Virus record (IMG/VR): IMGVR_UViG_3300035660_000060
Span: 1-30,542 of that record
Reading direction: 5' to 3' (one strand)
Origin: a virus
Taxonomy: Duplodnaviria > Caudoviricetes
DNA length: 30,542 nt
Of the stretch, positions 1,769 to 29,417 are shown in pieces. The notes under the pieces were generated by a model that was not told where the DNA came from, searched no databases, and was given only the letters and a program-made list of their open reading frames with translations. Position 1 is the stretch's first letter, and each line of letters starts with the position of its first letter. The position numbers were made by a program, and so were the translations under genes.

Positions 1769-1784
1769 CGTTGATCAGCTTGAG

Positions 1785-1877
1785 CGCAGGCATCTTTCCC
1801 GTTTGGCGACTGCCGAGATGAGCTAAAATCTCAGACAGGGAATCGCCAGAGCTTCAGACGATTCGGGGATGCCTGCG
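1785..1877 (-). other. Structured intergenic/5'-UTR RNA element (long nested hairpin)
   Basis: Nested inverted repeats: 1785-1794/1868-1877 (10 bp), 1798-1801/1864-1867, 1804-1809/1843-1848, 1810-1819/1828-1838. Confidence 0.6.
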
Positions 1878-3017: not shown

Positions 3018-4634
3018 CTATCCGAACAGATCCACCACGCCTAGCTCATGACCCATCTTCCTGGCGTGGTATGCGATCAGAGCGTAAACGAATGAATGAT
3101 AAGCGTCGTCCGGTTGGCCTTCCGGATGCGTGTAGTGGTGATATTTCTTGCCGGCGACGGTTTCCTGCTCTTCCATTTCTAGGCACGTGAAGTGGTCGAT
3201 GAGCCATTCAACGTCTTCGGGGCGTTGCCATGGTATGACTAGGCGAGGCGTGGGCTTTCCGTCTGGGCCGGTGCGTTTGATCACGTCCAGAGCGGTTTCG
3301 ATCCAGAAGCTGCGGTCTGCGAGCAGGATCATCTGTGCGATTCTTTCGCCGGCCTCGTCGCGGTGCTTCATCTCGAGCGGAAGCTCGGGCCGCCTGATGT
3401 AGTGGCAGCCCAACACGCGGTCTGCGAACTTCTTCTGCAGCTCCGAGACTTGCACAGCGCCATAACCCATGTCAGCTACGGCCTGTTTCACGTTGAACAG
3501 GTTGATCAGGTTGCCGATCGTGGCGACCTGTTTCATTGGGTCGCGCTCGTCAAACTTGTGCACGTAGAGCAGGCGCCAGCGGTCCAGCTCGTCCATTGCC
3601 ATGATCCAGATCAGGGTGAAGGAGAATTCTCCGCCGCCCCAGTCGATCCCGGCATACGAGACATAGGGCGCGTTGAGGGCTTGGAACATGGTTGACTCAA
3701 AGTCTCGGCACTCCATCAGGTCCTGCGTGATCAAAGGTTTCCTTAAGCCTCGGTAGAACAGGCCGAGCACTTCATTTTGGAAGAGGCGGGGCAAGTAGTG
3801 CGCACGCTTGTAGGGAATGCTGTTGACGTCTTCGGGCGGCAGCTTTGTGATCCACACGGCCATCTCCTGCGTCATGTGGTAGCCGCTGTAGCTGCGGTTT
3901 TGGGGTTTTTGAGGAACCCACGCTTTAGCGTCTGAGTCCCATTCCTTCATGTCGCTTTCCTGCCAGCGCTGGTCGAACTGTGAGCCTGCGTCTGAAGATG
4001 TGCCCACTATGACCATGCGGCCGAAGCTGCTGTGAGCCATAGTTTCTGTCAGGACTGGTAAGGCTTCGCTTGAAACGTCTTGGGCTTCATCTACGGCTGC
4101 GAAGTCTGCTGGTATGTTTCTTATGGCGCTGAAGTCTCCCCAGCCTGAGTACATGTAGCAGAGGGAGCCGTTGTCGAAGGGTATGCGGCTGATGGCCGGT
4201 TGCCCTTCCACGTCCTTAGACTCAATCACCACATGCCTGAGCACGGGGCTGTCCCAGATCGCTTTTCTGAGCCTGTCTCGACTGAAGCGGCTGACCTGAT
4301 CCATTCGGGGCGCAGTGTAGATTGCGGTGGTGTTTGGGTTCGTGGTGAGCTGATAGAGAAGCCAGTTCACGATCCACTCCGTCATCTCCATTTGCCGGGC
4401 TTTGGCTACCACTACTCGCCGGTGCGGGTCTCGGTAGATCGGCAGGAGATAGTCGCGGTCTTGGAAGGTGAACGCTGCGCCTTTCAGGATGCGGCAGCGC
4501 AGGGCCCACTCAACTGGGTCCTGGTGCAGGGCTTCCAGAGCTTGGCTTCGCGCTATCTGCTCCTTGATTTGCTGCAGGTCCTTTTCTTGCTGCAAGAGCC
4601 TGTTGGAGACTTGCGATTGCTGCCTCATGCTCAT
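3018..4634 (-). CDS. terL: Terminase large subunit (GpA-like ATPase plus RNase H-fold nuclease)
   Basis: Walker A-like VVVAKARQMEMTE, YTAP, Walker B FAAVDE, coupling motif VIVGT, nuclease acidic motifs YAGIDWG, VADMGYG and PDDAYHS. Confidence 0.92.
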   Translation of the reverse strand: MSMRQQSQVSNRLLQQEKDLQQIKEQIARSQALEALHQDPVEWALRCRILKGAAFTFQDRDYLLPIYRDPHRRVVVAKARQMEMTEWIVNWLLYQLTTNPNTTAIYTAPRMDQVSRFSRDRLRKAIWDSPVLRHVVIESKDVEGQPAISRIPFDNGSLCYMYSGWGDFSAIRNIPADFAAVDEAQDVSSEALPVLTETMAHSSFGRMVIVGTSSDAGSQFDQRWQESDMKEWDSDAKAWVPQKPQNRSYSGYHMTQEMAVWITKLPPEDVNSIPYKRAHYLPRLFQNEVLGLFYRGLRKPLITQDLMECRDFESTMFQALNAPYVSYAGIDWGGGEFSFTLIWIMAMDELDRWRLLYVHKFDERDPMKQVATIGNLINLFNVKQAVADMGYGAVQVSELQKKFADRVLGCHYIRRPELPLEMKHRDEAGERIAQMILLADRSFWIETALDVIKRTGPDGKPTPRLVIPWQRPEDVEWLIDHFTCLEMEEQETVAGKKYHHYTHPEGQPDDAYHSFVYALIAYHARKMGHELGVVDLFG

Positions 4635-6066: not shown

Positions 6067-7608
6067 CTATGTTTGTTTTACGATCACGGCCTCTGCTTGC
6101 AGGGGAACGGGTCCGGCGGGCACTTTGTCTCCTTGCTTGGGGCTCACTGCGATAGCTTTCGATGTATCTGTTGGGTTTTCTTCAACTTCGAACGTGATGT
6201 GTGCACTCTCCTGTCCGCGCACGCCTTTGTAATATGGCACGCTCCACCATGTGTAGGTTCCGGGTTCAAGGGTCTGAATGGACTCGTACAGGTTGCCGGT
6301 CTTGGGCTGCGTCTTTGTGTCCGCCAAAGCGTCGTCTAGATAGAATTCTACCTTGTCAACTTTCTCAGCGGGTGATCCGCCTAGGCCTGCGGCATCGTCT
6401 CCCGGAAACTGCTGCGCATCAATGTCCCACGCCATGTAGTACTGGATGGTGTACGGCGCCTTGCTAAGCCAAGTGTTCCATGACGTGATGCAGGCTACGG
6501 TGGCGGGGCCGTGCAGCAGCCCTTCCAAGAGCGCTCGGAAGTAGTCGCTGTGCGGACAGAAAAAGTACTTGCTGTGCGAGTCCATGGTCGGATCTTCGTT
6601 GTCGATGCTGAACACAAAGTCCTCTATGTAAGAGTGCTCTGCGAGCTCTCCTTGGCTGAGGCGCTGCTGGAAAGAGTCGCCGAACTGGCAGCTGAGGAAG
6701 CTGCCGATCCGGTTTCTCATGTTGCCGTAGTTCACAGGTTCAAGTAGCACATCTTGTCGGTATCCCGTGTACCTTGTGGAGTCTCCGTGGCCGGTACCTT
6801 CTATTCCTCGGACTAGCGAGGTGGCAGCGGTGGCTGCTTCAAACTGAGTTCGCTTCGCTTGGTCGCCATCAAGCTCTACGACTGAGAATCCAAGCTGCCT
6901 AGCGTATTCGCCTATCATCTTCTTGTTCCAGTATTGGCCGAAGCGGCATGCAGTGTCGCCCCAGTCGCCGTCAGGAATCGTGAGGATCTGTATTTCTTCT
7001 GGAAGAACGCGTCCTTTGATTTGCAGTGTCGGCAAGTCTGTGAACAAAGGGGCGACTGGCGGCTTTTTGCTGAAGATGCGAACCAGCTTCTTGCCAAGCG
7101 GTGTGCCCTGCACCATGTGCTCGTACTGTTCCGCTCGAGTGACGCCTCGGGCGGGCCACACGGATCCGAATAGGCCGGCGTTGAGGCTTGTGAGGCGGTC
7201 GCCTTCATTCTTCTCGAACTCTTTGTCGCCCAACTTGACGGGGTGCTTGCTGAAGTCTTTTCGGGTGGCTTCTTCAAGGTTTTTGATGGCTAGCTGCGTG
7301 GTCGGGTCAAGCTGCTCAAGTTCCTTCTGCGACAAGCCTTCTTTCGGCCGGAAGTGGTTAAACGCATACTTGATCACGTCGATGCCCCAGTAGCCAGATC
7401 CGATGATGCCAGCGAGAGAGACTAGATCAGGTTTGACGCTGCTCAGGTAGGCGAGCAGGCCGACTAGGCCGCCTGCGAACAGGTGGCGCAACCACTGTTT
7501 TGCGTCGGTGAGCACATCGTGGCTTTCAGGCGGCAGGATCATGTAGGCGACTCCGCCCAAGATACCTGCGCACAGTTCAATCAAAAGCGCGGTTAGTTGT
7601 GGATCCAT
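6067..7608 (-). CDS. Membrane-anchored clan CD-like (gingipain C25/caspase-fold) cysteine protease with C-terminal Ig-like domain
   Basis: About 3 Gly-rich TM helices in the first 85 aa. GTGHGD and FLSCQFG match the His-Gly...Ser-Cys dyad pattern. KVDKVEFYLDD...LEPGTYTW is an Ig-like signature. Confidence 0.7.
   Translation of the reverse strand: MDPQLTALLIELCAGILGGVAYMILPPESHDVLTDAKQWLRHLFAGGLVGLLAYLSSVKPDLVSLAGIIGSGYWGIDVIKYAFNHFRPKEGLSQKELEQLDPTTQLAIKNLEEATRKDFSKHPVKLGDKEFEKNEGDRLTSLNAGLFGSVWPARGVTRAEQYEHMVQGTPLGKKLVRIFSKKPPVAPLFTDLPTLQIKGRVLPEEIQILTIPDGDWGDTACRFGQYWNKKMIGEYARQLGFSVVELDGDQAKRTQFEAATAATSLVRGIEGTGHGDSTRYTGYRQDVLLEPVNYGNMRNRIGSFLSCQFGDSFQQRLSQGELAEHSYIEDFVFSIDNEDPTMDSHSKYFFCPHSDYFRALLEGLLHGPATVACITSWNTWLSKAPYTIQYYMAWDIDAQQFPGDDAAGLGGSPAEKVDKVEFYLDDALADTKTQPKTGNLYESIQTLEPGTYTWWSVPYYKGVRGQESAHITFEVEENPTDTSKAIAVSPKQGDKVPAGPVPLQAEAVIVKQT
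7013..7040 (-). repeat. 28-bp inverted repeat, copy 1 (inside the protease gene)
   Basis: The - strand reads CAGACTTGCCGACACTGCAAATCAAAGG, identical to + strand 14655-14682. Confidence 0.95.
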
Positions 7609-7610
7609 GA

Positions 7611-7859
7611 CTATTCGCCTCGTGCCTTCGCCAGAAACTCTTGAAGAGGCATGCGTTCACCTGAACTCGTGAGCACGGTGCCGTCCCACAGAAACATGAG
7701 GGGTCCCTGACGGATGGTGGGTGGCGCCTGCTGGCTGAACAGAGCCTGCAATATGTCTGCTGCCTGAGGCGCCGCGGGTTGATTAGCTGGATGGTTTCTG
7801 CAGATCCCGCCGAGGCCGCATCGATTGCAGTCCGGCGAGAAACAAGGTGGTCCTTTCAT
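7611..7859 (-). CDS. Cys-rich hypothetical protein (82 aa)
   Basis: C-x4-CxxC-x5-C N-terminus; tight operon spacing. Confidence 0.6.
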   Translation of the reverse strand: MKGPPCFSPDCNRCGLGGICRNHPANQPAAPQAADILQALFSQQAPPTIRQGPLMFLWDGTVLTSSGERMPLQEFLAKARGE

Positions 7860-7865
7860 TCTTTC

Positions 7866-8168
7866 TCAATTCCTTCTTAAACTTGGGTGCACATAGCTGT
7901 GGTCGCGTTGCGTCAACACGTCTCCTTTCGCCACGCCTACGCTCGGGTAGCTGTTGAGGCTCACGGTTTCAGCCCGCTCACGGTCCCGGAAAGAAGATTG
8001 CCACATGGCGCCGCGAATGATGCCTTGAACCATAGCGTAGGGAGAAAGAGCTTTCTGCAGACGTTCTTGCCGGCGCATTTCATGTCTGCGTCGGCTGGCG
8101 TATCCGCGATGCTTTCTGCTGGTAGACTGCGCGATCGGCTGATTCCGGAGTTCAAACCAGAGTTGCAT
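7866..8168 (-). CDS. Basic hypothetical protein (100 aa)
   Basis: ORF in operon orientation after a short intergenic gap. Confidence 0.5.
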   Translation of the reverse strand: MQLWFELRNQPIAQSTSRKHRGYASRRRHEMRRQERLQKALSPYAMVQGIIRGAMWQSSFRDRERAETVSLNSYPSVGVAKGDVLTQRDHSYVHPSLRRN

Positions 8169-8232
8169 GGCTAAAGAGACAGCTCCTTAAGAGAGCCTTA
8201 CGCAACGTTCCACGCTATTTTGCGGGAGAAGC

Positions 8233-8613
8233 CTAGGGCCCGGGGTTATTTATCGCTTTGCACACCCTTGCGGCAAAGGCACGCATGTTCCGCTCGGTCA
8301 GGCGACGGTACGGCAGCCGGAGAGGATAGATGTGCATTTCACGCAGCTGCCGGTCGACCCAAGCATCTTTCTCCTTTTGCTTCTCTGACCGAGCGTGGAT
8401 CGGCCCATCCATGAAGACGGCGACTGCGACCCAGTCGTCTTTCGGCGGGTCCAGCTCATAGTACTGGTCGGCGCTTGTGATCAGGCGGAAGATAGGGTGG
8501 TTGATGAAGTCGGGATGCACGCGCATCTTTTCCAGAAAGATGAGCTGGTCCACTTCACCCTTGCTCTGATATCTGTCGTGGCTGAAAGGGCGCTTGCTTT
8601 CTGGAACAGTCAT
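8233..8613 (-). CDS. DUF559/Vsr-like endonuclease
   Basis: SxxE near the N-terminus and AVFMDGPIH...KDAWVDRQLR..IYPLRL match the family pattern. Confidence 0.7.
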   Translation of the reverse strand: MTVPESKRPFSHDRYQSKGEVDQLIFLEKMRVHPDFINHPIFRLITSADQYYELDPPKDDWVAVAVFMDGPIHARSEKQKEKDAWVDRQLREMHIYPLRLPYRRLTERNMRAFAARVCKAINNPGP

Positions 8614-9151
8614 CTAGCAGATCAGGCTCCCACATGCGGATGGGCATGGAAATAAGGCGAGGCATTCGGCGGGGTGAAATCCGAGGGCTTGACAACTTTT
8701 CGAGCACGGTCAGAACTCGAAGGCCCCGAAACTCAGCCGGTTCAAAAAAGAACTTGGCGATGAGACGCATGCTGCGTTTGAGGTAGAGCGAAGGATCCAA
8801 GTAGTGCAGAGAGATAAGGCGGCCGCCAGTCGGCAAGGCCTCTTTCATCTGAATTAGTGCGGGTTTGGTGTTCCAGAGGGTCACACCTTCATAGGGTGGA
8901 TCCCAAATGATAGATCTGAAGTGACCTGACCGGATCGGTAGCCAGCAGTGGTCTGCTCTGATATCGGCCCTCTCATATAGGTCTAGTTTGATGTCTCCAA
9001 GAGGACTCTGACCGCTGCAGACATGAAGGCAGGGATGCAGGATCCACTTGATAATTTCATGTTCAATCAGCTGAGGGAAGCGCCAGCCGGGCCGATACGA
9101 CTCCTTAGACTTGCCCTTGAGAAACCGACGCTTCCTTCTGATCTTCCTCAT
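8555..9151 (-). CDS. Small amino (N6-A/N4-C) DNA methyltransferase
   Basis: SAM-binding motif I-like CLHVCSG followed by catalytic IIWDPPY. Confidence 0.8.
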   Translation of the reverse strand: MRKIRRKRRFLKGKSKESYRPGWRFPQLIEHEIIKWILHPCLHVCSGQSPLGDIKLDLYERADIRADHCWLPIRSGHFRSIIWDPPYEGVTLWNTKPALIQMKEALPTGGRLISLHYLDPSLYLKRSMRLIAKFFFEPAEFRGLRVLTVLEKLSSPRISPRRMPRLISMPIRMWEPDLLDDCSRKQAPFQPRQISEQG

Positions 9152-9503
9152 CTTTCGGTGCCTCTTTGAATTCCTTGACGTAGACTGTGGCGCCTCTCAG
9201 AAGGGTTCGGGACTTCACTCGAACAGCCAGGTAGCAGGGGTAGTGGTGGCAGCTGGCGTGCACCCTGTTCGCCCAGAGACTGTGGGGCTGCACGTACAGC
9301 TGGCCTTTCATGATGGGCTTGTGGCAGACCATGCAGTCGCCCAAGTTCTTCGTTGCCCTGTGCAGGCCGCCGCTCACTCGAGCATGGTCACAAGGAATGC
9401 CTGTGGTTGTGTAGGTGGGTTTCGGGTCGTCGTGTGCTTGGGTACGCTTGATTTCTGTGATGAGCCAATATCTTCTACGATATCTCTTCATTTCTTTTTC
9501 CAC
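9105..9503 (-). CDS. Zn-finger protein (132 aa)
   Basis: CMVCHKPIMKG...VHASC. Confidence 0.6.
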   Translation of the reverse strand: MEKEMKRYRRRYWLITEIKRTQAHDDPKPTYTTTGIPCDHARVSGGLHRATKNLGDCMVCHKPIMKGQLYVQPHSLWANRVHASCHHYPCYLAVRVKSRTLLRGATVYVKEFKEAPKDEEDQKEASVSQGQV

Positions 9504-9666
9504 CAGCTTGCCGGCGCAGTCTCCACTTGATCAGGACGTATGCGAGCCCTTGTTGTCCATCGTCCAGATCGGGGTGCCACCATCGTGCATCATAGTCTGC
9601 GAGTCCTCGCCAGTACAGGCGCCGGGCGATCCAGTACTTCAGGCGCAGCCACAGTTGGTAGATCAT
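9475..9666 (-). CDS. Hypothetical Trp/Arg-rich protein (63 aa)
   Basis: ATGA overlap; operon packing. Confidence 0.55.
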   Translation of the reverse strand: MIYQLWLRLKYWIARRLYWRGLADYDARWWHPDLDDGQQGLAYVLIKWRLRRQAGGKRNEEIS

Positions 9667-9947
9667 GGCTGTTGGTTCCTCTCATGGAGCTTCCCAATCT
9701 TGGCCTTGGCAAAGTCCAAGTATGCTCTTTCCTGCGAGGTTAGCTCAGCATATTCTTGATCAGTCATGAGCCGAAGCCCGTCTTTGGTGTACACTAACAG
9801 TGCGGTGCAGGAGAAGCAGACTGAAAGATCGCCTTCGGCCGGCTTGGCTTCCATCTCTCCACTCACAGAGGTATGCGCATCCAGAAGATCGCCGCATTTT
9901 GGGCAGCGTCCTCGGTTTTCCTGATGCGCCCAGCTAGGTGCGCTCAT
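9663..9947 (-). CDS. Zn-ribbon protein (94 aa)
   Basis: CPKCG...GDLSVCFSC. Confidence 0.7.
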   Translation of the reverse strand: MSAPSWAHQENRGRCPKCGDLLDAHTSVSGEMEAKPAEGDLSVCFSCTALLVYTKDGLRLMTDQEYAELTSQERAYLDFAKAKIGKLHERNQQP

Positions 9948-10380
9948 CTTCTCTCACCATGTACTTCAGGACGAGCGGCCCCGGCTTAGGAAAGACCTTG
10001 TTGAGTTTGGGGTACACTGCGTACTTCTCCAGCACCACCATCCTTCGGCCTGTGACAGTCTTCATGCGCACCGGGAAACGAACCAACAGCCAGGCGGGAA
10101 AGTACTGGCGTTTGAAGGCTTGCCACCATCCGTCCGGGTACTCAAAGGGAAAGGTGACGTCGTAGCTTTCCGGCCCCAAGTCCTCAGCCAGCACGCAGCT
10201 TCTCAGGCTTAGAACCATCTGCCGAAGCAGTATGTGATAGTACGTGCTCAGCTTCAAGTCATGCTTGAGTTGGGTCAGGTCAGCCACGGATTCTTCAGCC
10301 ACTACGGCCAGCTTCTGGATCAGAACTTCTTCAAGATGGGGGTCGATCATTGTCTTATACGGACTTGCCATTACTTTCAC
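9934..10380 (-). CDS. Hypothetical viral protein (148 aa)
   Basis: Globular-looking ORF (PDGWWQAFK..FPAWLL.RFPV) overlapping both neighbours by a few bases. Confidence 0.7.
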   Translation of the reverse strand: MKVMASPYKTMIDPHLEEVLIQKLAVVAEESVADLTQLKHDLKLSTYYHILLRQMVLSLRSCVLAEDLGPESYDVTFPFEYPDGWWQAFKRQYFPAWLLVRFPVRMKTVTGRRMVVLEKYAVYPKLNKVFPKPGPLVLKYMVREDERT

Positions 10381-10649
10381 TCTTCTCTCTCTTTCTTTGT
10401 GTGTGTGTGTGACAGAATGTCTTGGGTTTGTGGGGGCACTATGCCATTTCCTTTAACGGCGTTAATCTCCCACCGACTTTCTTCCAACCGAATATCTAGG
10501 AAGTAGTCTCGGTAGGCCCGAGCAAGCCAGTACTGCTTCCAGACAGGCACATGAACTTCCAGCTCTATTTCGCCCATGCTGACATCGCCACCCTTGTCGC
10601 GCACATGAGCCACAATACGGTTCATCAACGCAATGTTGCTAAGTCTCAT
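10377..10649 (-). CDS. Possible winged-helix DNA-binding protein
   Basis: RIVAHVRDKGGDVSMGEIELEVHV resembles wHTH helices 1-2; weak evidence. Confidence 0.45.
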   Translation of the reverse strand: MRLSNIALMNRIVAHVRDKGGDVSMGEIELEVHVPVWKQYWLARAYRDYFLDIRLEESRWEINAVKGNGIVPPQTQDILSHTHTKKEREE

Positions 10650-10656
10650 TTCTCTC

Positions 10657-10917
10657 TCACACACACACAAGTTGCAGTGGAAGTAGAGGGGTCTGGGCCG
10701 CCAAGGCAAGCAGGTAAGGCACCCACTGGCCGTTCATCCGGGTCACCGCTTCACTGGACTTGAGCCACGTGTGGCAAGGCACGCAAAGGAAGTGTCGGTC
10801 GTATTTGCTGACGCCGACTCGTTGATGGGGTCGGCGCTCTTTGTGGTCGTGGGGGTTCATTCGAAGGGCTTTGTGGCAGCTTGGATCAGGGCAATGCGGA
10901 CGAATCAAAGTTACCAT
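10657..10917 (-). CDS. Zn-finger protein (86 aa)
   Basis: CPDPSC...CVPC. Confidence 0.6.
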   Translation of the reverse strand: MVTLIRPHCPDPSCHKALRMNPHDHKERRPHQRVGVSKYDRHFLCVPCHTWLKSSEAVTRMNGQWVPYLLALAAQTPLLPLQLVCV

Positions 10918-11093
10918 TCCGCCGGCACCTCTCCTTCATACGCCGCCAAGAGAGTTCTTCCCTCGGACCAATCCCACTTCTTGACCATGGCGTCGGGGCA
11001 TCCTGTGCACCTTTCCTTGCTCGTGATTCGGAAGCCCCTGTGATGTCTTGGACACTGGGAGTCGGCCATGCAGTGAATCTGGGGCTGAGTCAT
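10911..11093 (-). CDS. Cys/His-rich small protein (60 aa)
   Basis: C-x5-CPRHH...CTGC; ATGA overlap. Confidence 0.55.
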   Translation of the reverse strand: MTQPQIHCMADSQCPRHHRGFRITSKERCTGCPDAMVKKWDWSEGRTLLAAYEGEVPAEW

Positions 11094-11278
11094 GTCGGCA
11101 GCCTCGTTTGTCCTCTGAGCTTCTCGTCGCAGCCCTGAATGAACTCATCCAGCAGGTCTAGAAACTTGCGGCATTCGTCTAGGCCTTGGAAGCCTTGCAC
11201 GATGACGCGCACCTTGTTGCCTCGCTCACTCACATCAATCGTACGTTTCACAATCTCGATCAGTTCCATGTGAATCAC
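11090..11278 (-). CDS. Hypothetical protein
   Basis: A GGGGTGA SD suggests the start may be the ATG at 11269. Confidence 0.6.
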   Translation of the reverse strand: MIHMELIEIVKRTIDVSERGNKVRVIVQGFQGLDECRKFLDLLDEFIQGCDEKLRGQTRLPT

Positions 11279-11496
11279 CCCCTGAGTTCATTGAGCTCTT
11301 CCTCAGCGGTCACTCTCACCCGTAGAGACTCAAAGTACTTCGCCTGATAGTCTGACATGTTCTTTTGGCATGCCTTAACCGTTTCAGTCAGAAACTCCGT
11401 GCGTTCTTTCCATTCTTCGTCACTCATAGGAACTATAACGGTCACAAGGCCACCGCACTTTTGGCAGGTTCCTTTTCTCCTAATCATGTGGCTCAT
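11275..11496 (-). CDS. Hypothetical protein with CxxCG
   Basis: CQKCG then an acidic helix; operon packing. Confidence 0.6.
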   Translation of the reverse strand: MSHMIRRKGTCQKCGGLVTVIVPMSDEEWKERTEFLTETVKACQKNMSDYQAKYFESLRVRVTAEEELNELRG

Positions 11497-11500
11497 TGAT

Positions 11501-11866
11501 TCATCGCCTCGCTTCAGGTTTTAGGGGCCGGCTCGGGCTGCCAAGAAGGGGATCGCGTGTCTCAGAGAATTGACTTGGCGACGACTGAGGCGCCGAGCCT
11601 GGCTCTCCCCGGTTGACGCAAGGCGGATCCACAAAGCGCCGGTACTTCTCCTCACGCTCCCGCTGCTTCATATAGCTCTGGCAGCACTCGCAGTGCAGAG
11701 ACAGGTGAAAGAGCCAGTGGCATCTGGTTTTGACTGGCCGGCCGCAGATCTCGCAAGGCTGATCTGTATGAATCAGGTCGGTGCATCTGAAGCAGTGGCT
11801 GCGAATTCTGCGTGCGAAGGTTTCAGGCGACATAAGAAACTCCTGCTGGTAGCTCGATTCGCTCAT
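11501..11866 (-). CDS. Cys-rich Zn-binding protein
   Basis: CFRC, CEICG, CECC; ATGA overlap at 11863-11866. Confidence 0.6.
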   Translation of the reverse strand: MSESSYQQEFLMSPETFARRIRSHCFRCTDLIHTDQPCEICGRPVKTRCHWLFHLSLHCECCQSYMKQREREEKYRRFVDPPCVNRGEPGSAPQSSPSQFSETRDPLLGSPSRPLKPEARR

Positions 11867-12051
11867 AGTTCCACCGTCGCTCGTTCTATTCCGCATCCAA
11901 AGCAAACAACGATCACTCGGGAGTTAGTCAAAGATCCTGATGCCTTGACCATGTTGGAACCGCACTCAGGGCAGGCCCCGCTGATGGTCACGGCGCCAAT
12001 CTGAACTGGGAGAGTGATTGTTACCGTGCCTGATATTCGTGGAAGACTCAT
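11863..12051 (-). CDS. CPxCG Zn-ribbon micro-protein (62 aa)
   Basis: CPECGS...CFGCG. Confidence 0.7.
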   Translation of the reverse strand: MSLPRISGTVTITLPVQIGAVTISGACPECGSNMVKASGSLTNSRVIVVCFGCGIERATVEL

Positions 12052-12239
12052 GGTTTCTTGCCTCGCCTTTTGATGATGGCTCGCTGATATCGCTCGATCA
12101 GGTCCAAGTCCAGCCGGCCCGAAAGCAGGCGCTGCTTTAGTTCGTAGTTCTTTCTGGAGTCGTAGCGGCCGCCGCGTATATACCGCCGTACATATGTGGT
12201 CAAGTTTCTGGGAAGAAGCCCTCGGTACTGGCGCCTCAT
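12048..12239 (-). CDS. Basic hypothetical protein (63 aa)
   Basis: Arg-rich; ATGA overlaps at both ends. Confidence 0.6.
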   Translation of the reverse strand: MRRQYRGLLPRNLTTYVRRYIRGGRYDSRKNYELKQRLLSGRLDLDLIERYQRAIIKRRGKKP

Positions 12240-12412
12240 AGCTTTCTCCTCTTCATTTCTTCTTCAACGCGATCTAGCCTGCGTTCAAGCTGAACGAGCA
12301 CGCGTGCGGTGTGCGCCCATGCTGCAAATCCTAACCACCATTTCCACAGGCAGTATCCGCCGACTCCTATTCCCATCAGGGCTGCGGAAGTGAGCAACAG
12401 TTCAACAGTCAT
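12236..12412 (-). CDS. Small membrane protein with coiled-coil tail
   Basis: Hydrophobic N-terminus (LLLTSAALMGIGVGGYCLW) then QLERRLDRVEEEM. Confidence 0.55.
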   Translation of the reverse strand: MTVELLLTSAALMGIGVGGYCLWKWWLGFAAWAHTARVLVQLERRLDRVEEEMKRRKL

Positions 12413-12734
12413 GGTTTCGTTTCTCCTTGAGCCATTGCCCTGCTTTCCGGGCCTTGAATCGCTTCTTGCAGGCTGCACAGTTGTCCGGCGACGCTTCCTT
12501 GCCTTGCTCCAAAGCTCCGAAGTAGAAACCCCAAGACCCGCAGAGGGACCTGGAGTCCACAAAATAGTGCCACTTTCTGCTCTCAAGCGGTTTACCCCAG
12601 CCTTCCTTGACAGTTTTAGTCGTTTTAGTCATGAGGATCAGACGGGCTCGGTGCCGGGGGCAAGTCCTGACGCCTGACTCTGACACGTAGGTCGAATCAT
12701 GCATACAGCCAGGATAGTCGCACTTCTCATTCAT
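12402..12734 (-). CDS. Double Zn-finger protein
   Basis: CDYPGC...CPRH and WHYF...SLCG...CAAC. Confidence 0.65.
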   Translation of the reverse strand: MNEKCDYPGCMHDSTYVSESGVRTCPRHRARLILMTKTTKTVKEGWGKPLESRKWHYFVDSRSLCGSWGFYFGALEQGKEASPDNCAACKKRFKARKAGQWLKEKRNHDC

Positions 12735-12957
12735 TTTGATTTCCTCGCACCGCTTCCAGACCCGCCAGAGCACGCTTCTTTTCCTTCAACCCGTTCAAGG
12801 CAAGTTCGGCGTCGACTCCGCAGGGTTCGCAAAGCTGTTCCTCAAACCATTCCATGAAGTCATCGCTCCTCTTCATTTTTGCCTTCATGTTGAGAAGGCG
12901 CTGAGGCTTGTCGGTGATGTCTTTGCCGCACCAATCGCAGAAACGCCTGTCGACCAT
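12727..12957 (-). CDS. Zn-finger protein
   Basis: FCDWCGKDI...LCEPC. Confidence 0.7.
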   Translation of the reverse strand: MVDRRFCDWCGKDITDKPQRLLNMKAKMKRSDDFMEWFEEQLCEPCGVDAELALNGLKEKKRALAGLEAVRGNQNE

Positions 12958-12958
12958 G

Positions 12959-13564
12959 TCACTTGCCCCCCCGAGGTGGCCACGGTATGCGTCCAAGCAG
13001 ATCCCTGTTGTCGCCGCTGATGATGTAGCTGTAGGCACCGCACCTGCGCCATTTCTGACTCATCTGATCCATCTCGGCGATGAACTGTTTGATGGCAAGG
13101 ATCACTTCAACTTCTTTTCGGTAGCACCACTGGTAGCCTTTCTCGTTTGGAACGCTCCATGACGATATTCCGTTCAGAAGCGATTCCACATTCACATCAG
13201 GTTGAGTTATTGGCGGTTGCGGGGGCTGCACAGGCTGCTTGGCCGGTGCGGGTCGTGTAGGCGGTGCACTCGATGGGGGCCGCACATCCGGCTGCTTCTG
13301 CGCATCTTCCAAATAGGCAGCTTTGGCCTCTCCGATCAGCACATTCAGGTCGGTTTGAAGTTCGTGCGCAAAATCCAGTCGTTTCTTGCCTATGGGCGTC
13401 TCTTCGAAGAAACCAACTTTCACATACTCAAACTCACCTGGCGCCACTTGGCTAGGAACAGGAATCGTTCTTCCCACATGGACTACGCGTGTCAGATGAC
13501 TCTTCGCTATAACCTCGTCCATGTACTTCTTGAGTTCTTCAAAGGCTTCTGGATGACCCATCAC
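12959..13564 (-). CDS. Two-domain hypothetical protein with Pro/Gln linker (201 aa)
   Basis: Long clean ORF; function not assignable from sequence. Confidence 0.7.
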   Translation of the reverse strand: MMGHPEAFEELKKYMDEVIAKSHLTRVVHVGRTIPVPSQVAPGEFEYVKVGFFEETPIGKKRLDFAHELQTDLNVLIGEAKAAYLEDAQKQPDVRPPSSAPPTRPAPAKQPVQPPQPPITQPDVNVESLLNGISSWSVPNEKGYQWCYRKEVEVILAIKQFIAEMDQMSQKWRRCGAYSYIISGDNRDLLGRIPWPPRGGK

Positions 13565-13814
13565 GCCTTACCTCGCTTGGCTCGGACCACACGGATCTCG
13601 TCTGCATTAACCGCAAGAATCGCGCCTCGAGGGCGGAGCTTTATTTGCAGCAAGCAGATTCCTTTCCGGAGAGCGAATAGAACTTTGTTCATTCTTGCTC
13701 CTCGCTCCCCTCTTGGTCGTTGTCTCGGACACCTTCCCGGCTGAGCCGGTGAGGTGGTTCCGGTCGACTGTTCGTACTCATCTCAGTCGCCATGTCCGTT
13801 AAGCTGCGGACGCC

Positions 13815-13830
13815 CTATATAACTGCTTTT
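13815..13830 (-). promoter_or_regulatory. Archaeal-type promoter of the small-gene operon
   Basis: The - strand reads AAAAGCAGTTATATAG; the TATA lies about 23 nt before the ATG at 13793, consistent with a leaderless mRNA. Confidence 0.6.
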
Positions 13831-13835
13831 GATGG

Positions 13836-14459
13836 CTACATGAACTGGCTGAGAACTCGACTTTTCTCGGGGTCGCGCTTTGTTTCTGTCGACAACGGCG
13901 GCCGAAGAGAGTCCAGGTAGATCAGGAAGCGGTCAGCTGACCATGCCTGCTCCGAGGGGATCTCGAGATAGGTTTCAGGGCCGCCTCGAATTGACACCTT
14001 GACTGTTCCGTATCGGTACGGGTCATCAAGGAGAATGAAGCGCACTAATCTCAAGTCAGGCAAGACGTGAGCGGCCCATGTCTCTTTGTCTCGGTGCTTC
14101 AGGGCCCAGCCGAACTTGTCAGGCCGAATCCACAGGGGAGAATCGAACGTTAAAGGCTTCGACGTTCCTGTCACTTCCAGGAAGAGTTCTCGGCTCAGAC
14201 CTAGAACTTGCAGATCTGGAATCCCGGGTTCGGACGGCATCTCTTGGGCCTTGCGGGTGCTTTCCGCATAGAAGCCGAAGCCGCAAACGGTGTGCCCCGC
14301 GTCCTGCAGCACCTTCTTGACAATGTCGACTCTGCGCTTTCCTTCAACCCAATCGCCCTGATATTTGGCTCTCCAAGCATCATAGACTTGTCTTTTCGAG
14401 CTATGCCTTGCACGGTTCATGTCTACCTTCACCGGCCCGTCAGGCGTCCCGTCGCTCAT
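13836..14459 (-). CDS. PD-(D/E)XK-superfamily nuclease-like protein (207 aa)
   Basis: PGIPDLQV...LFLEVTG: PD...E present, but Thr occupies the usual Lys position. Confidence 0.6.
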   Translation of the reverse strand: MSDGTPDGPVKVDMNRARHSSKRQVYDAWRAKYQGDWVEGKRRVDIVKKVLQDAGHTVCGFGFYAESTRKAQEMPSEPGIPDLQVLGLSRELFLEVTGTSKPLTFDSPLWIRPDKFGWALKHRDKETWAAHVLPDLRLVRFILLDDPYRYGTVKVSIRGGPETYLEIPSEQAWSADRFLIYLDSLRPPLSTETKRDPEKSRVLSQFM

Positions 14460-14492
14460 AGTCCTGTCAAGCTCCGCTAGACGCAGTCAAAG

Positions 14493-14513
14493 TATATAAA
14501 ACGATTTTTCGCG
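14493..14513 (-). promoter_or_regulatory. BRE/TATA promoter of the nuclease-like gene
   Basis: The - strand reads CGCGAAAAATCGTTTTATATA, about 33 nt before the ATG at 14459. Confidence 0.65.
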
Positions 14514-14549
14514 TACATAAGGATCACATATAAGGAGCTTCAAGAACAA

Positions 14550-14700
14550 GCCCTCTAGCACCATGGTGCTGCAGCCGTTTCAGGGCATCATTCCGCCCTC
14601 TTTCCTGAGTTTTCGGGCGCCGAAAAGTGCGCAGCTAGGCGGAAAGAGCGTCCGCAGACTTGCCGACACTGCAAATCAAAGGCGGCGACTTTCTCTTTCC
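14550..14700. ncRNA. Candidate structured non-coding RNA
   Basis: Palindrome AGCACCATGGTGCT at 14557-14570; stems 14591-14597/14638-14644 and 14610-14616/14620-14626; GGAAAGAG (14641-14648) can pair with CTCTTTCC at 14598-14605 or 14693-14700. Confidence 0.4.
14655..14682 (+). repeat. 28-bp inverted repeat, copy 2
   Basis: CAGACTTGCCGACACTGCAAATCAAAGG is the reverse complement of 7013-7040. Confidence 0.95.
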
Positions 14701-14834
14701 GTCAGCATGCGTCGACAAGCCGGCGATGCACTTGGACCAAAACGTGCCTCTCGGCCTTGCAGGAAGGCCGCGCATTGCTCGTTGCATTCTCGCGTCTTGT
14801 CGTAGGCGCAGTATCTCGTCTTGGTGGAACTCAT
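14676..14834 (-). CDS. Cys-rich micro-protein (52 aa)
   Basis: CAYD..RECNEQCAAF...C; follows the last tail gene. Confidence 0.55.
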   Translation of the reverse strand: MSSTKTRYCAYDKTRECNEQCAAFLQGREARFGPSASPACRRMLTERESRRL

Positions 14835-14850
14835 CTTCCGTTCACTCTCA

Positions 14851-15807
14851 TCACGGCAACATTGCATCATGTATCTCATAAATCATGTAGGCGCAGGTGG
14901 CTGGGTCTGGAAAGTATTGGCAAAGATAGGTGTTTAAACTGATGACCTTTGTTTTGAGGTCAGAGGGGTCAAGGCAGAAGCGGCCATATGAGTTTGCTCC
15001 CCTAGACATCCACGTGCCGAAATTTCCAACTCGATGATTTTGGTTTTCCTTAGCGAAGAACACGCCATAATCGTCTGGACCGATCAACCAATCGCGGTTA
15101 GTGATTCCCGCAGCCAAGAGATAATCCAGATAGGGCACCTCAAGAGTGATGTCGCCATCCAGACAGAAGAAAGCATACGTGTCTGAGTAAGGATAGTCGC
15201 GATCAACCCGTTCCGCAATCCAATGCCGGTCTTGACTGTCAATCACCAGACCACCAATAGAGGCGCTTGGAGCGAGCGTGTGTTCTATTATCTCGGTCCA
15301 TTCCGGATCATCACTCATCCCCAAATTGCAGACCGCATATTTGTATCCCCCAGCGTAATAACGACCAAGCCCCCACAGCACACCGAGCTGAGTGCAACAC
15401 AACTGCCGGATTTCCCCCGGGGGGCTCACATAATCCGTTTCTATTTCCAGCACTTTCTCGAAGGTTTTTGTGTCCAACTTTTCTCTGAACAGAACTTCCG
15501 TGCAGGGGCCGGGATATGTTCCTGTTGCTCCTCTTCCCCACGCTCGTCCTTTCTCATCCAAGCAGGAGCGATAAGCATCATCGAATCCATAGATATCTCT
15601 GAAGTCGTCCGGAATCAGAACATACTTGTCAAATGTGGCAACTACTCCTGTACCTGCTCCTGCGCCACCCATCACCACCACGGGCACGGAGCCGCTTCTT
15701 CCCACCTTTCTCCGCATCAAGTCGTCTATGTCGTCCTGTACGTCAGCCACCATTTTTCCTAAGCCCGGTCTGGTTTGGAGACGATATTTGGTCAAGTTTT
15801 TTCCCAT
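14851..15807 (-). CDS. Putative tail-tip/receptor-binding protein (318 aa)
   Basis: Position after the baseplate hub; N-terminal helix plus Gly linker, then beta-propeller-like repeats (LDEKGRAW, IDSQDRHW). Confidence 0.55.
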   Translation of the reverse strand: MGKNLTKYRLQTRPGLGKMVADVQDDIDDLMRRKVGRSGSVPVVVMGGAGAGTGVVATFDKYVLIPDDFRDIYGFDDAYRSCLDEKGRAWGRGATGTYPGPCTEVLFREKLDTKTFEKVLEIETDYVSPPGEIRQLCCTQLGVLWGLGRYYAGGYKYAVCNLGMSDDPEWTEIIEHTLAPSASIGGLVIDSQDRHWIAERVDRDYPYSDTYAFFCLDGDITLEVPYLDYLLAAGITNRDWLIGPDDYGVFFAKENQNHRVGNFGTWMSRGANSYGRFCLDPSDLKTKVISLNTYLCQYFPDPATCAYMIYEIHDAMLP

Positions 15808-22647: not shown

Positions 22648-24009
22648 CTATGCGATCCCGTAGATCCGGGCCATCTTCGAGGTCCCGGTCGTTGTGACGG
22701 GCCAGCTGTTGTTGTTGTATGTCTGCGCGTATGCCTGAGTCTTATCGATGATGTTGGCGAACTTCTTGATGACAAACGGCTGACTCAAAGCTGCTTTCGG
22801 AAGCATCTCCATGGTCGAGTCCAACAGCATTCTTTGGGCGAGGAACTTGGTGTCCAAGAAAAGCACTTCACGAGCGGCCGCTGTCACAGGCATGAACTTG
22901 CTTGCCACTATCGGCATTGTGCCGTAGGGCGTATGCCAAGCCAGCGCTTTCAGTCCCCACGCGATCTCCGTTTCCGGATTCACATACATGAGGACTCCCA
23001 TCATGAATTGCTTGATTTTCTGCCAAGTCCACAGGTCAGTTATGCACAGGTTGTATTTCACGTTTCGAGATGCTCCGTCTGCAATCGCCTTGTCAATATC
23101 CGTGTCGTCAATGTCGCTGTTGTTCTTGTCGTAGTTCTGATCAGCCTCACCAGAAGGCAAGCCTGCCACGGTCTGCGTGGTGTAGATCTCCGCACGGATG
23201 CCTACGAAGCCGTTCGAAGAGGCTCCCAGGCTTGAAGACCCGTTCAGGATCTCGTTCTCCCACGCTTCGTTCAAGCTCCAAGTCTTGTTCCGGACTTCCA
23301 GCGCCCTCGCATCTCGGCTCGGGTACTGGCTGCCCATCGTGGCTATGGCGACGTCGGTCCATCCGCCTGGCGAGATCAAGATGCCGATGGTCTTCGTGGC
23401 GTTCTTGTACGTGTCATCTCCCGGCGTGATGGTGCTGACTGTCTCCGTGGTGAATATGGCTGCGGCACGAGCCGTCAGAATGTCGTATGATGCGACCTTG
23501 CCCCGGGAAGTTTCCTGCGGAACAAGCTCCATGATCGGACATTCCTTCCGAGTCGTGTCGATGATCTCCTGGTCGGTCGTGGTGTGCACTATGGCTGCCG
23601 TGGAGTCAAGGTAGCCTTTGGTGCGTAGCTGAGGCGCCTGAATGCCGTTTCTAGTCCACTTCCAGAAGCCTTGACGGAAGTCGTCTCGAGTGACAATGCG
23701 GCCCGTCAGAGGGTCCTTGACCCATCGTCCGTTGAGTCCCAAATAGATCGGTGTGCCGTCTGGCACAGCCGCGGGACCCACCATGAGGCGGGCCATCTGC
23801 TCCCAGCGGGCTGACTCGTCTGGGCCGAAGCCCACCGCCCTCACTTGTTTGAGGGTGGGCGAGAAGCCTGGCTGAGCGACTTGAACGGGCTTGAATTGGA
23901 ACGCTTCTCTCAGCTGAGCGACCTGTTGAGGCGACATGTGTTTGTCGCGGTACGCGGGGTGCGCCAGTTGCATTCTCAAAGCCTGCTCACTTAGATCTGT
24001 AGCTGCCAT
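22648..24009 (-). CDS. Major capsid protein (HK97 fold) with N-terminal extension
   Basis: DQEIIDTTRKECPIMELVP, long backbone helix ...LNEAWENEILNG..NGFVGI, TPYGTMPIVASKFMP; follows protease and scaffold. Confidence 0.9.
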   Translation of the reverse strand: MAATDLSEQALRMQLAHPAYRDKHMSPQQVAQLREAFQFKPVQVAQPGFSPTLKQVRAVGFGPDESARWEQMARLMVGPAAVPDGTPIYLGLNGRWVKDPLTGRIVTRDDFRQGFWKWTRNGIQAPQLRTKGYLDSTAAIVHTTTDQEIIDTTRKECPIMELVPQETSRGKVASYDILTARAAAIFTTETVSTITPGDDTYKNATKTIGILISPGGWTDVAIATMGSQYPSRDARALEVRNKTWSLNEAWENEILNGSSSLGASSNGFVGIRAEIYTTQTVAGLPSGEADQNYDKNNSDIDDTDIDKAIADGASRNVKYNLCITDLWTWQKIKQFMMGVLMYVNPETEIAWGLKALAWHTPYGTMPIVASKFMPVTAAAREVLFLDTKFLAQRMLLDSTMEMLPKAALSQPFVIKKFANIIDKTQAYAQTYNNNSWPVTTTGTSKMARIYGIA

Positions 24010-24015
24010 CTTTCA

Positions 24016-24768
24016 TCAACCTCTGTATGCGTCGATGATGTCAAGCTGGCTCTCGATTGAGCCGTCATCGTTAGCGATGCGTTGAGCTGCTCTGATGCCT
24101 TCAGGCATAGGTCCGGATTCCTCGTTGAATCCTTTCCGGAGTATTCGCTGCCTAGCCAATTCGTCGCCTATCGTCTTCCTGACGAGTTTCACGACGAATC
24201 GTCCGAGGCTTTTGGCTCCGATTTCCTGCGTGTCCACTTCGTCAACCCCAGGGTCGTCTGACTCTATGGCGGTGATGACGCGCTGCTTCTTGGGCTTGCC
24301 CATGGGGCCGTACACAACCTCTCCAAAGTCCTGCTCTTCAAGACTTGTTGAGGCGGTTTTCTCGCCCAAGATTTCCAGCGTGTCCTCATCGATGCCTTTG
24401 ACATCGATCGGCACGCCCAGTGCCTTGCCTATCACTCCGAGTCCTTTACCCATGACTGCCATGTTCTTTGCTACTGTTGCCATCATTGTCTCCAGTCCTT
24501 TGACTCGTTCTTCCAGCTCCTCTTCCTCTTCCTCTCCTGGTACTTTGCCCCCCCTTCGCTGGATGGGATCTCCCCACTCGCCCAAGCCGGTTGAAGCCCG
24601 CTCGGCTGCGGTGGTGCCTGTTTGGCGGTCGAAGTCCCGTCTTTCAGCAGGGAAGCCAGGATCAGGGTCAGGATCGGGATCGGGATCGGGATCGGGATCG
24701 GGATCCGGATCAGGGTCCGGGTCAGGGTCTGGATCTGGGTCCTTTCTTCGGAATCGAAAGGTTTTCAA
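24016..24768 (-). CDS. Probable scaffolding protein (acidic, 250 aa)
   Basis: Lies between protease and MCP; acidic, low complexity, coiled coil EELEERVKGLE. Confidence 0.65.
   Translation of the reverse strand: MKTFRFRRKDPDPDPDPDPDPDPDPDPDPDPDPDPDPGFPAERRDFDRQTGTTAAERASTGLGEWGDPIQRRGGKVPGEEEEEELEERVKGLETMMATVAKNMAVMGKGLGVIGKALGVPIDVKGIDEDTLEILGEKTASTSLEEQDFGEVVYGPMGKPKKQRVITAIESDDPGVDEVDTQEIGAKSLGRFVVKLVRKTIGDELARQRILRKGFNEESGPMPEGIRAAQRIANDDGSIESQLDIIDAYRG
24658..24741 (-). repeat. Coding hexamer repeat, (Asp-Pro)14
   Basis: GAY-CCN x14 with synonymous variation. Confidence 0.95.
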
Positions 24769-26809: not shown

Positions 26810-27507
26810 TGGACTCTCAGACATACGAGTATTGGCTGACCATTGTGACCAGCCGCATCTACACAAGGGACCGCTTCAGCAAGGAAGCTGGGCGCCTTGG
26901 CGTAAATCGCACCGTTCCAGCGGGCATCCTGAAAGAGCTCTGCTGGAAAGATTCGGTGCTGCTAGGCGACTGGACTGGTCGCAGAGCCAGACGCGTGGTT
27001 CACAAGTTGAAAGGCAAACCTGCGGTGGCAATCACAGCGCCCGAGGGCAGCCTTGAAGTATTCGCATACTTCACGGTCGACACCATCATTCCTGAAGGCT
27101 TCAGTGAGGAAGCTCACAAGGAATTCGTGGACAGCCTAGACGTAGCTGGAACCGTGGAAGCATCCGGACCGGTGCAGCGTGCGTGCGGCAGCTACACTCT
27201 CGGCGGCGGATATGAAGTTCGAGACTCCATCACCCAGGCAGTTGTGAAAGCCGAACTGGTGGCGGAGAAGCACCGGCTGAAGCTGAAGTGGTTCATGGGC
27301 GGACGCTTCTACCCAGTGGACCCGATTTCTGCGGGAGAAGGAAAGTGGACGATTGGCTACCGGAAGGTGCAGCTGGACAAAGCCATCACGCCGGGAGATA
27401 CACAGGTCAACCACGTGCGCTTTCTAGAGGACTATGAGCGCCGGCGTCACCTGAAGAAGATTGATGCGGAGCGGCTGGACGGAGTGCAGATGGGGTTTGC
27501 CGAGTAA
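26806..27507 (+). CDS. Hypothetical protein (233 aa)
   Basis: ATGA overlap with AbrB; globular; motifs [16 protein letters not shown] and VQRACGSY; no family recognised. Confidence 0.75.
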
Positions 27508-29036: not shown

Positions 29037-29417
29037 ATGACCGCAACCAACCAACCAACCAACCAACCAACCAACTGTATGGTACATACATACCATACCA
29101 TACAGTACGCTGCACGTGGTCCTTCTTTTCTTCGGTCCTTTCGTTGGCGAGACTTGGAAACCTACAACAAGTTCAAGGAACTCATGCAGCGAGAAGGAAC
29201 CTCGGTTAGCCAAGCCCTATTCAACTACATGTTTGGCTACGTGCAGGACCATTATCCGGGCAACCCTCAGCCAGTGCTCGGCAAGTTTCTCGACCCGCCT
29301 CCTGCCAAAGCTGTCTGTCCTACTGGCGAAAAGAACGATTGCCCTCTACACCCTGAGATTTGTGTTCACCGGAAACGCTTTGCCTGTAAGTTTGACCCAT
29401 GGGTGAAAAAGAAATGA
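29037..29417 (+). CDS. Ribbon-helix-helix-like regulator with Cys-rich tail
   Basis: RSFRW...YNKFKELMQREGTSVSQALFNYM fits strand-helix-G.S.S-helix; alternative start at ATG 29079. Confidence 0.65.
   Translation: MTATNQPTNQPTNCMVHTYHTIQYAARGPSFLRSFRWRDLETYNKFKELMQREGTSVSQALFNYMFGYVQDHYPGNPQPVLGKFLDPPPAKAVCPTGEKNDCPLHPEICVHRKRFACKFDPWVKKK
29044..29075 (+). repeat. Perfect tetranucleotide microsatellite (CAAC)8
   Basis: Counted directly. Confidence 0.95.

Follow-up and report, generated by a model that had tools for sequence, protein, structure and literature searches.

How did one and the same stretch of 28 nucleotides (nt) come to stand twice in the DNA of a virus, once inside a gene and once, inverted and 7.6 kb away, at the junction between two blocks of genes? 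The question is raised by the IMG/VR record IMGVR_UViG_3300035660_000060, of which positions 1 to 30,542 were analysed (hereafter the window). The window represents part of a tailed virus; nearly all of its genes lie on the minus strand, the terminase large subunit being encoded at 3018-4634 and the major capsid protein at 22648-24009, with tail genes that reach 14851. The two copies and the gene that carries the first of them are the following.

6067 to 7608, minus strand: gene of a 513-amino-acid (513-aa) protein, upstream of the terminase genes
7013 to 7040, minus strand: coding copy of the 28-mer; it spans codons 190-199 of the 513-aa gene, within a linker
7013 to 7050, no strand assigned: quasi-palindrome at the coding copy, with a 6-bp inverted repeat (7013-7018 / 7045-7050)
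14655 to 14682, plus strand: site A, the second copy; its plus strand has the sense of the mRNA, its minus strand is antisense

The answer that we favour, and to which we give an even chance, is that site A is a self-copied piece of the 513-aa gene, left by a likely template switch in replication or repair; there is probably no dedicated machinery behind the copy.

The inverted match, reported in an earlier note on this DNA, was confirmed as exact over 28 nt, compared with a longest distant exact repeat of 14-21 nt in 200 resamples drawn from an order-5 Markov model of the window. The runner-up exact inverted repeat in the window has 17 nt; it joins the capsid gene (23416-23432) and an open reading frame (ORF) on the opposite strand (27383-27399) and lies inside the chance range. 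Both copies of the 28-mer are present in the sister virus G002, a complete genome of 35,462 bp with terminal repeats, and both stand on one unbroken 27,670-nt contig (depth 152) of run X2, which comes from a second sample; the repeat is therefore not an assembly artefact. The orientation of both copies is the same in the window strain and in G002. Since the two strains are almost identical (99-100% identity across most of the aligned span, interrupted by 19 diverged blocks, two of which flank site A and mark the region as a mosaic junction), the conservation of the 28-mer is no sign of selection. Ten more distant relatives (G001, G003-G011) were retrieved via the capsid and terminase proteins; several are fragments, the 513-aa gene is present in 0/10, and neither site A nor an inverted self-match of at least 18 nt was found in any of them. 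The host is likely a bathyarchaeon, as suggested by the relative G007 and not by the window virus itself, because a gene in the flank of G007 clusters at 90% with proteins of Candidatus Bathyarchaeota.

The direction of copying was likely from the gene to the junction. A homologue (P0003), which is 68-70% identical to the 513-aa protein, keeps T190, D191, P193, and K198 (T-D-x-P...K) in a linker that otherwise differs, and the coding copy is for this reason likely the original. Scans of metagenome and viral sequences with the 513-aa protein as query gave no DNA for P0003, but one contig of run X3 departs from the window at 6993 and from there on has bases whose translation gives the P0003 linker. 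The 513-aa protein itself has N-terminal hydrophobic helices, a putative cysteine-protease domain, and a weak immunoglobulin-like tail, and its structure model has a predicted local distance difference test score (pLDDT) of 32. It had been labelled a candidate lysis protease, a label to which database searches gave no support and which goes back to the hydrophobic helices and to an HG...SC motif, presumably of the kind known from caspase/gingipain-fold proteases. The placement of the gene fits a lysis module, by analogy, because in the relative G001 a papain-family peptidase, preceded by a small membrane protein, occupies a similar position before the terminase; a lysis role is putative.

The evidence that carries the template-switch explanation lies in the flanks of the two copies. 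Site A is a reverse-complement copy of the donor, and its flanks match the donor flanks in direct orientation (14648-14653 = 7009-7014; 14684-14690 = 7051-7057), with local scores of 15 + 14 in direct orientation versus 6 + 8 in inverted orientation; values as high were reached at 0.37% of 20,000 random sites (p ~0.004, in a test devised post hoc). A short piece of the 513-aa gene would thus have been copied in reverse to the place where the tail genes meet the accessory block, seeded by short flank homologies and by the 6-bp inverted repeat that brackets the donor; such seeding would yield flanks in direct orientation around a reversed core; the copy would be neutral and any antisense effect a by-product. 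That inter-strand template switching can leave an inverted spacer between inverted repeats has been described for local events (PMC5453318), and the quasi-palindrome template switch (Ripley model; four-point model; PMC5453318) shares with our case the reversed core, the direct flanks, a donor with a 6-bp inverted repeat, and product hairpins. The known events are local, however, whereas donor and copy are here 7.6 kb apart, so that a long-range templated insertion is needed. If the scar is what it appears to be, it is a clean snapshot of how a virus acquires, by a single copying slip, a perfect antisense element ready for use, and it likewise illustrates the short self-duplications by which this Bathyarchaeia-type virus family is shuffled; the interest would then be modest.

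Several points weigh against this explanation. The core matches at 28/28 positions and the flanks only imperfectly, which could mean selection on pairing, and the flank similarity itself leaves selection possible because within the hairpin at site A the same similarity extends antisense pairing. The copy sits neatly in that hairpin (z -2.5 to -3.4) and is oriented such that the tail transcript would be antisense to the gene. The same flank test was not significant at a second self-copy described below (6%), the local model alone leaves the 7.6-kb jump unexplained, an empty, pre-insertion allele was not found among G001-G011 or runs X1-X3, and the ten distant relatives are no test of co-variation, given their fragmentary state and the lack of the donor gene.

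How the copy is embedded bears on all of the alternatives. On the minus strand, site A is preceded by a tail gene that is diverged between the strains and by a 52-codon ORF, and the order then continues with two hairpins, a 37-nt segment, about 60 conserved bases, a TATA box, and a nuclease gene.

14676 to 14834, minus strand: likely ORF (52 aa, Cys-containing) behind the tail gene, with its stop codon inside the 28-mer
14638 to 14703, no strand assigned: predicted hairpin enclosing site A (z -3.4 on the plus and -2.5 on the minus strand, versus shuffles)
14610 to 14626, no strand assigned: short perfect hairpin, identical in G002
14561 to 14597, no strand assigned: 37-nt strain-variable segment, whose place is taken in G002/X2 by unrelated sequence of equal length
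14492 to 14500, no strand assigned: TATA box, readable in both directions, the sole canonical one in the window by pattern count
13836 to 14459, minus strand: gene of a 207-aa PD-(D/E)XK-fold protein (Hjc-like), in which the family motifs E..G and W.R.DK are invariant

The earlier note had recognised the match at this site but neither the small ORF nor the strain-variable segment, and the second self-copy had escaped it too. Its description of site A as non-coding fails for the first 7 nt of the 14655 copy on the minus strand, which form the last codons and the stop of the 52-aa ORF. In G002 the ORF is open too, from a different ATG; because this gives a different N-terminus and the shared part shows 0 synonymous and 2 non-synonymous changes, the ORF is likely a real gene, yet an unproven one. 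No relative beyond G002 was found for it in Pfam, in PHROGs, by tblastn on 12 records, or by exact look-up. The proposed 8-bp stem (14641-14648/14693-14700) is present and grows to 11 bp with one G-U pair on the plus strand, but the 28-mer would not be displayed in it as an open loop, as had been assumed, since it is predicted to form a 7-bp stem of its own on the minus strand. The hairpin at 14610-14626 is possibly a terminator-like element, and the TATA box is likely the promoter of the genes from the nuclease to the terminase. A match of G008 to this hairpin lies inside the end of an ORF, and 14-nt matches in G003, G004, and G007 lie inside the portal ORF; all were treated as chance.

The orientation of site A gives rise to the first alternative, an exapted trans-antisense RNA. 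The 3' end of a minus-strand transcript of the tail genes and the small ORF would fold into a hairpin whose 7-nt apical loop kisses a loop in the 513-aa mRNA and then zips to a 28-bp duplex with imperfect extensions, by which the putative lysis protein would be lowered or delayed late in infection. We regard this as possible but doubtful. A minus-strand RNA from downstream of the tail operon would indeed be complementary to the 513-aa mRNA, in the transcribed orientation, expression itself being hypothetical, and the predicted duplex amounts to -69 kcal/mol, or to a net -30.8 kcal/mol after unfolding of both partners; such energies arise, however, from any 28-nt inverted duplicate, and the predicted net value speaks to feasibility only. 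The hairpin around site A is more stable than shuffles on the minus strand, the copy lies just upstream of the sole TATA box, and a single change in the stem in G002 (at 14641) yields a G-U pair on the minus strand; against this, another stem pair favours the plus strand, the wider region (331 nt) is no more stable than shuffled sequence (z -1.1, -1.4), and the conservation is uninformative between such close strains. The target lies 570 nt into the coding region, where no nearby internal start signal was seen, and the arrangement was not found in the ten relatives. On the donor side, the quasi-palindrome at 7013-7050 is not unusually stable (z -0.2). Geometry thus allows the earlier proposal that a tail-transcript antisense RNA times lysis, in which both the RNA and any selection on it are hypothetical.

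Antisense RNAs of phages that act on phage genes are known, namely lambda OOP, aQ, and P1 c4 (PMC12197685), which share with the present case an RNA complementary to a phage mRNA, the RNA being hypothetical here. According to the same source, OOP and aQ are cis-encoded and long perfect pairing is typical of cis RNAs (PMC12197685); in contrast, the perfect 28-nt match described here would act in trans and lies inside a coding region. If the antisense reading were true, an archaeal virus would time its lysis through an RNA that acts in trans, of which we found no case in the open-access literature. In P1 c4, the pairing sequence is presented in a loop, as it would be here.

That the copies stand in inverted orientation also fits a role as DNA sites: recombination sites for an inversion of the 7.6-kb block, as the earlier note had considered, or sites to which one dimeric regulator binds. 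The internal quasi-symmetry of the 28-mer (7-bp arms around a 7-nt centre) would suit both, and host recombinases could act in trans. We consider this very unlikely. The complete sister genome has no match to PF00589 (tyrosine recombinases), and no match to PF00239 (serine recombinases) was found in G000 or G002. The orientation is the same in both strains, the X2 contig runs unbroken across both copies, no inverted joint was seen in the contigs of three runs, which can hide rare inverted forms, and the predicted inverted junctions are absent from 70 fetched loci. Operators, for their part, need no identical centre, and just two copies exist.

A further proposal was that the plus strand is transcribed from the TATA box into a guide-plus-scaffold RNA (hairpin, 37-mer, hairpin, 28-mer) which partners the adjacent PD-(D/E)XK protein and targets the DNA at 7013-7040 or elsewhere. 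The TATA box can be read in this direction, the plus strand carries no conserved ORF, the hairpin around site A is the more stable on this strand (z -3.4), and the equal-length swap of the 37-nt segment between strains looks spacer-like. This proposal is nevertheless the least probable of those considered and most improbable in itself, as follows from the protein family and from its gene neighbourhoods. A HMMER library search gave 140 relatives of the nuclease, where a word-index search had given the sister protein only. E95, G98, W110, and K115 are invariant in 66/66 aligned members, and D82 and T97 nearly so; the EVT sequence, which had been taken for the loss of the catalytic lysine, is thus the family norm and not the mark of a dead site, and K115 is perhaps the catalytic lysine in a new position. 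The structure model (pLDDT 88) has its best Foldseek matches in archaeal Hjc structures (E 6e-6, TM 0.70 by target).

Twenty-seven non-self nuclease loci were fetched, and the gene could be located in 25 of them (L033 and L034 were left out); some of the 25 are near-duplicates, three upstream ORFs are maybe spurious, and many contigs are short. A same-strand ORF of at least 75 aa ends at most 50 nt upstream of the nuclease gene in 21/25 loci, and this ORF carries a (D/N)PP(Y/F/W) motif, a methyltransferase motif, in 11/25; the four exceptions comprise gaps of 76, 92, and 195 nt and one locus without an ORF. An RNA of the omega type therefore finds no room upstream in 21 of the loci, and the idea is not supported. 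Nor did the homologue loci contain a conserved RNA scaffold, a resemblance to 14460-14860 (best match 20 nt, E 0.04), or a distant repeat adjoining the nuclease gene, and an Rfam scan of the window gave a single match, judged to be chance, and none for such an RNA. The family looks associated with restriction-modification rather than RNA-guided, by its gene context, and is a candidate defence-associated nuclease. Its members (13836-14459 and L008-L032, with EVTG and WIRPDK) have no Pfam, NCBIfam, or PADLOC model and are often encoded between methyltransferase and restriction-like genes.

The locus resembles IscB/TnpB and their omega RNAs in that the gene of a nuclease-fold protein adjoins structured non-coding DNA, part of which matches elsewhere. 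Unlike there, the protein is an Hjc-like PD-(D/E)XK protein and not of the RuvC type, no scaffold travels with the nuclease family, and neither a transposon end nor a variable guide was seen at site A, the 28-mer being identical in two near-identical strains and the varying 37-mer having no target that we could find. The closer comparison is with Hjc and with restriction-modification-associated PD-(D/E)XK nucleases, with which the protein shares its best Foldseek matches and the many homologues behind methyltransferase genes; it differs from Hjc in having EVTG instead of E-x-K and a separate invariant lysine (K115), lacks a Pfam or PADLOC family, and has putative activity. What is gained is the removal of a tempting false lead, as the neighbouring nuclease family does not look RNA-associated.

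The strain-variable segment is spacer-sized and has no flanking direct repeats, and its version in G002/X2 contains a 12-nt tandem duplication. A source of either 37-mer was not found in viral genomes, the 70 loci, or GenBank phages, and the 22-nt core of the window 37-mer had no match in IMG/VR, which counts against the guide RNA as well. Viral CRISPR mini-arrays of Bathyarchaeia, which include self-targeting spacers (PMC10848311), share with this locus the likely host class, a short self-matching segment, and the spacer-sized variable segment nearby. In contrast to those arrays, neither segment lies between direct repeats here, and the 28-mer is flanked by inverted repeats; no direct repeats of the mini-array type occur at 14500-14720. 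Four 12-nt motifs had no match in the two text supplements of PMC10848311, and sample numbers gave no sign of this virus or its relatives in that paper's text or in these supplements. A reading of the flanks as CRISPR handles was rejected, there being no direct repeats and the handle-like bases differing between the strains.

The proposed template-switch scar is not the only self-copy. The following two features lie near the left end of the window.

1773 to 1794, minus strand: site B, the second self-copy, which lies just upstream of a 587-aa gene; its 22 nt match G002 1910-1931, in the interior of the portal gene, exactly and in direct orientation
1785 to 1877, minus strand: predicted three-way junction (z -4.0), closed by a stem that includes part of site B

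The match of site B was scored against G002 because the window is without a portal gene of its own. The minus strand of 1773-1877 thus holds a predicted three-way junction of about 95 nt that ends in the 22-nt portal copy, just ahead of where the 587-aa gene starts. This copy stands in the portal frame within a short ORF that overlaps this start, and in G002 an HNH-like gene is inserted directly upstream of the site B region. G003 and G004 contain a 108-nt portal piece, 84% identical and in frame in a small ORF, and G007 contains a 61-nt repeat. To judge from the portal pieces and the G007 repeat, the lineage copies pieces of itself more than once, which supports the reading of site A as a scar.

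In G003 (L051, 17631-17924), as in G004, the small ORF has 97 aa and follows the terminase; its N-terminal part corresponds to 36 portal codons with mostly synonymous changes, and it possibly encodes a portal-mimic peptide. The 28-mer and a 26-nt repeat of G003/G004 share a 10-nt end, which was considered as a constant guide end and rejected, as it represents I-K-G codons in the longer portal-gene duplication. A 24-nt direct repeat in G010 (L065 470-493 / L067 12614-12637) was not counted as a self-copy; it flanks a provirus with a tyrosine integrase and is att-like. No tRNA was detected at this site, nor in any of six loci checked.

A bolder view of the same copies, which we think unlikely, is that pieces of its own late genes (putative lysis protease, portal), 22-28 nt long, are taken up by the lineage into structured RNA leaders and trailers and serve as reprogrammable antisense or guide modules. 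The region 14500-14705 would then be a small RNA with a swappable 37-nt part directed against host or rival-virus sequences and a 28-nt part directed against the virus's own lysis gene, which, if true, would be a CRISPR-free way to write new regulatory RNAs. The ten distant relatives, several of them fragments and all without the donor gene, gave no sign of a family-wide RNA system.

Searches of GenBank phages gave no significant match. In G002 (L036, 807-4544), the portal protein has 1245 aa, with an ADP-ribosyltransferase-like (polyvalent) stretch and, in the same fusion, a D12-class DNA methyltransferase domain, and L036 4839-6020 is a head-morphogenesis-like ORF with a weak intein match and an endonuclease-like ORF inside it on the opposite strand. 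The window itself contains at 8233-9151 a putative methyltransferase with a DPPY motif, followed by a small endonuclease-like ORF, both without a database match. A 4-nt tandem repeat is located in the right-hand region (29044-29075), and a Pro-Asp hexamer repeat in the putative scaffold gene (24647-24741), of which G002 has a shorter version.

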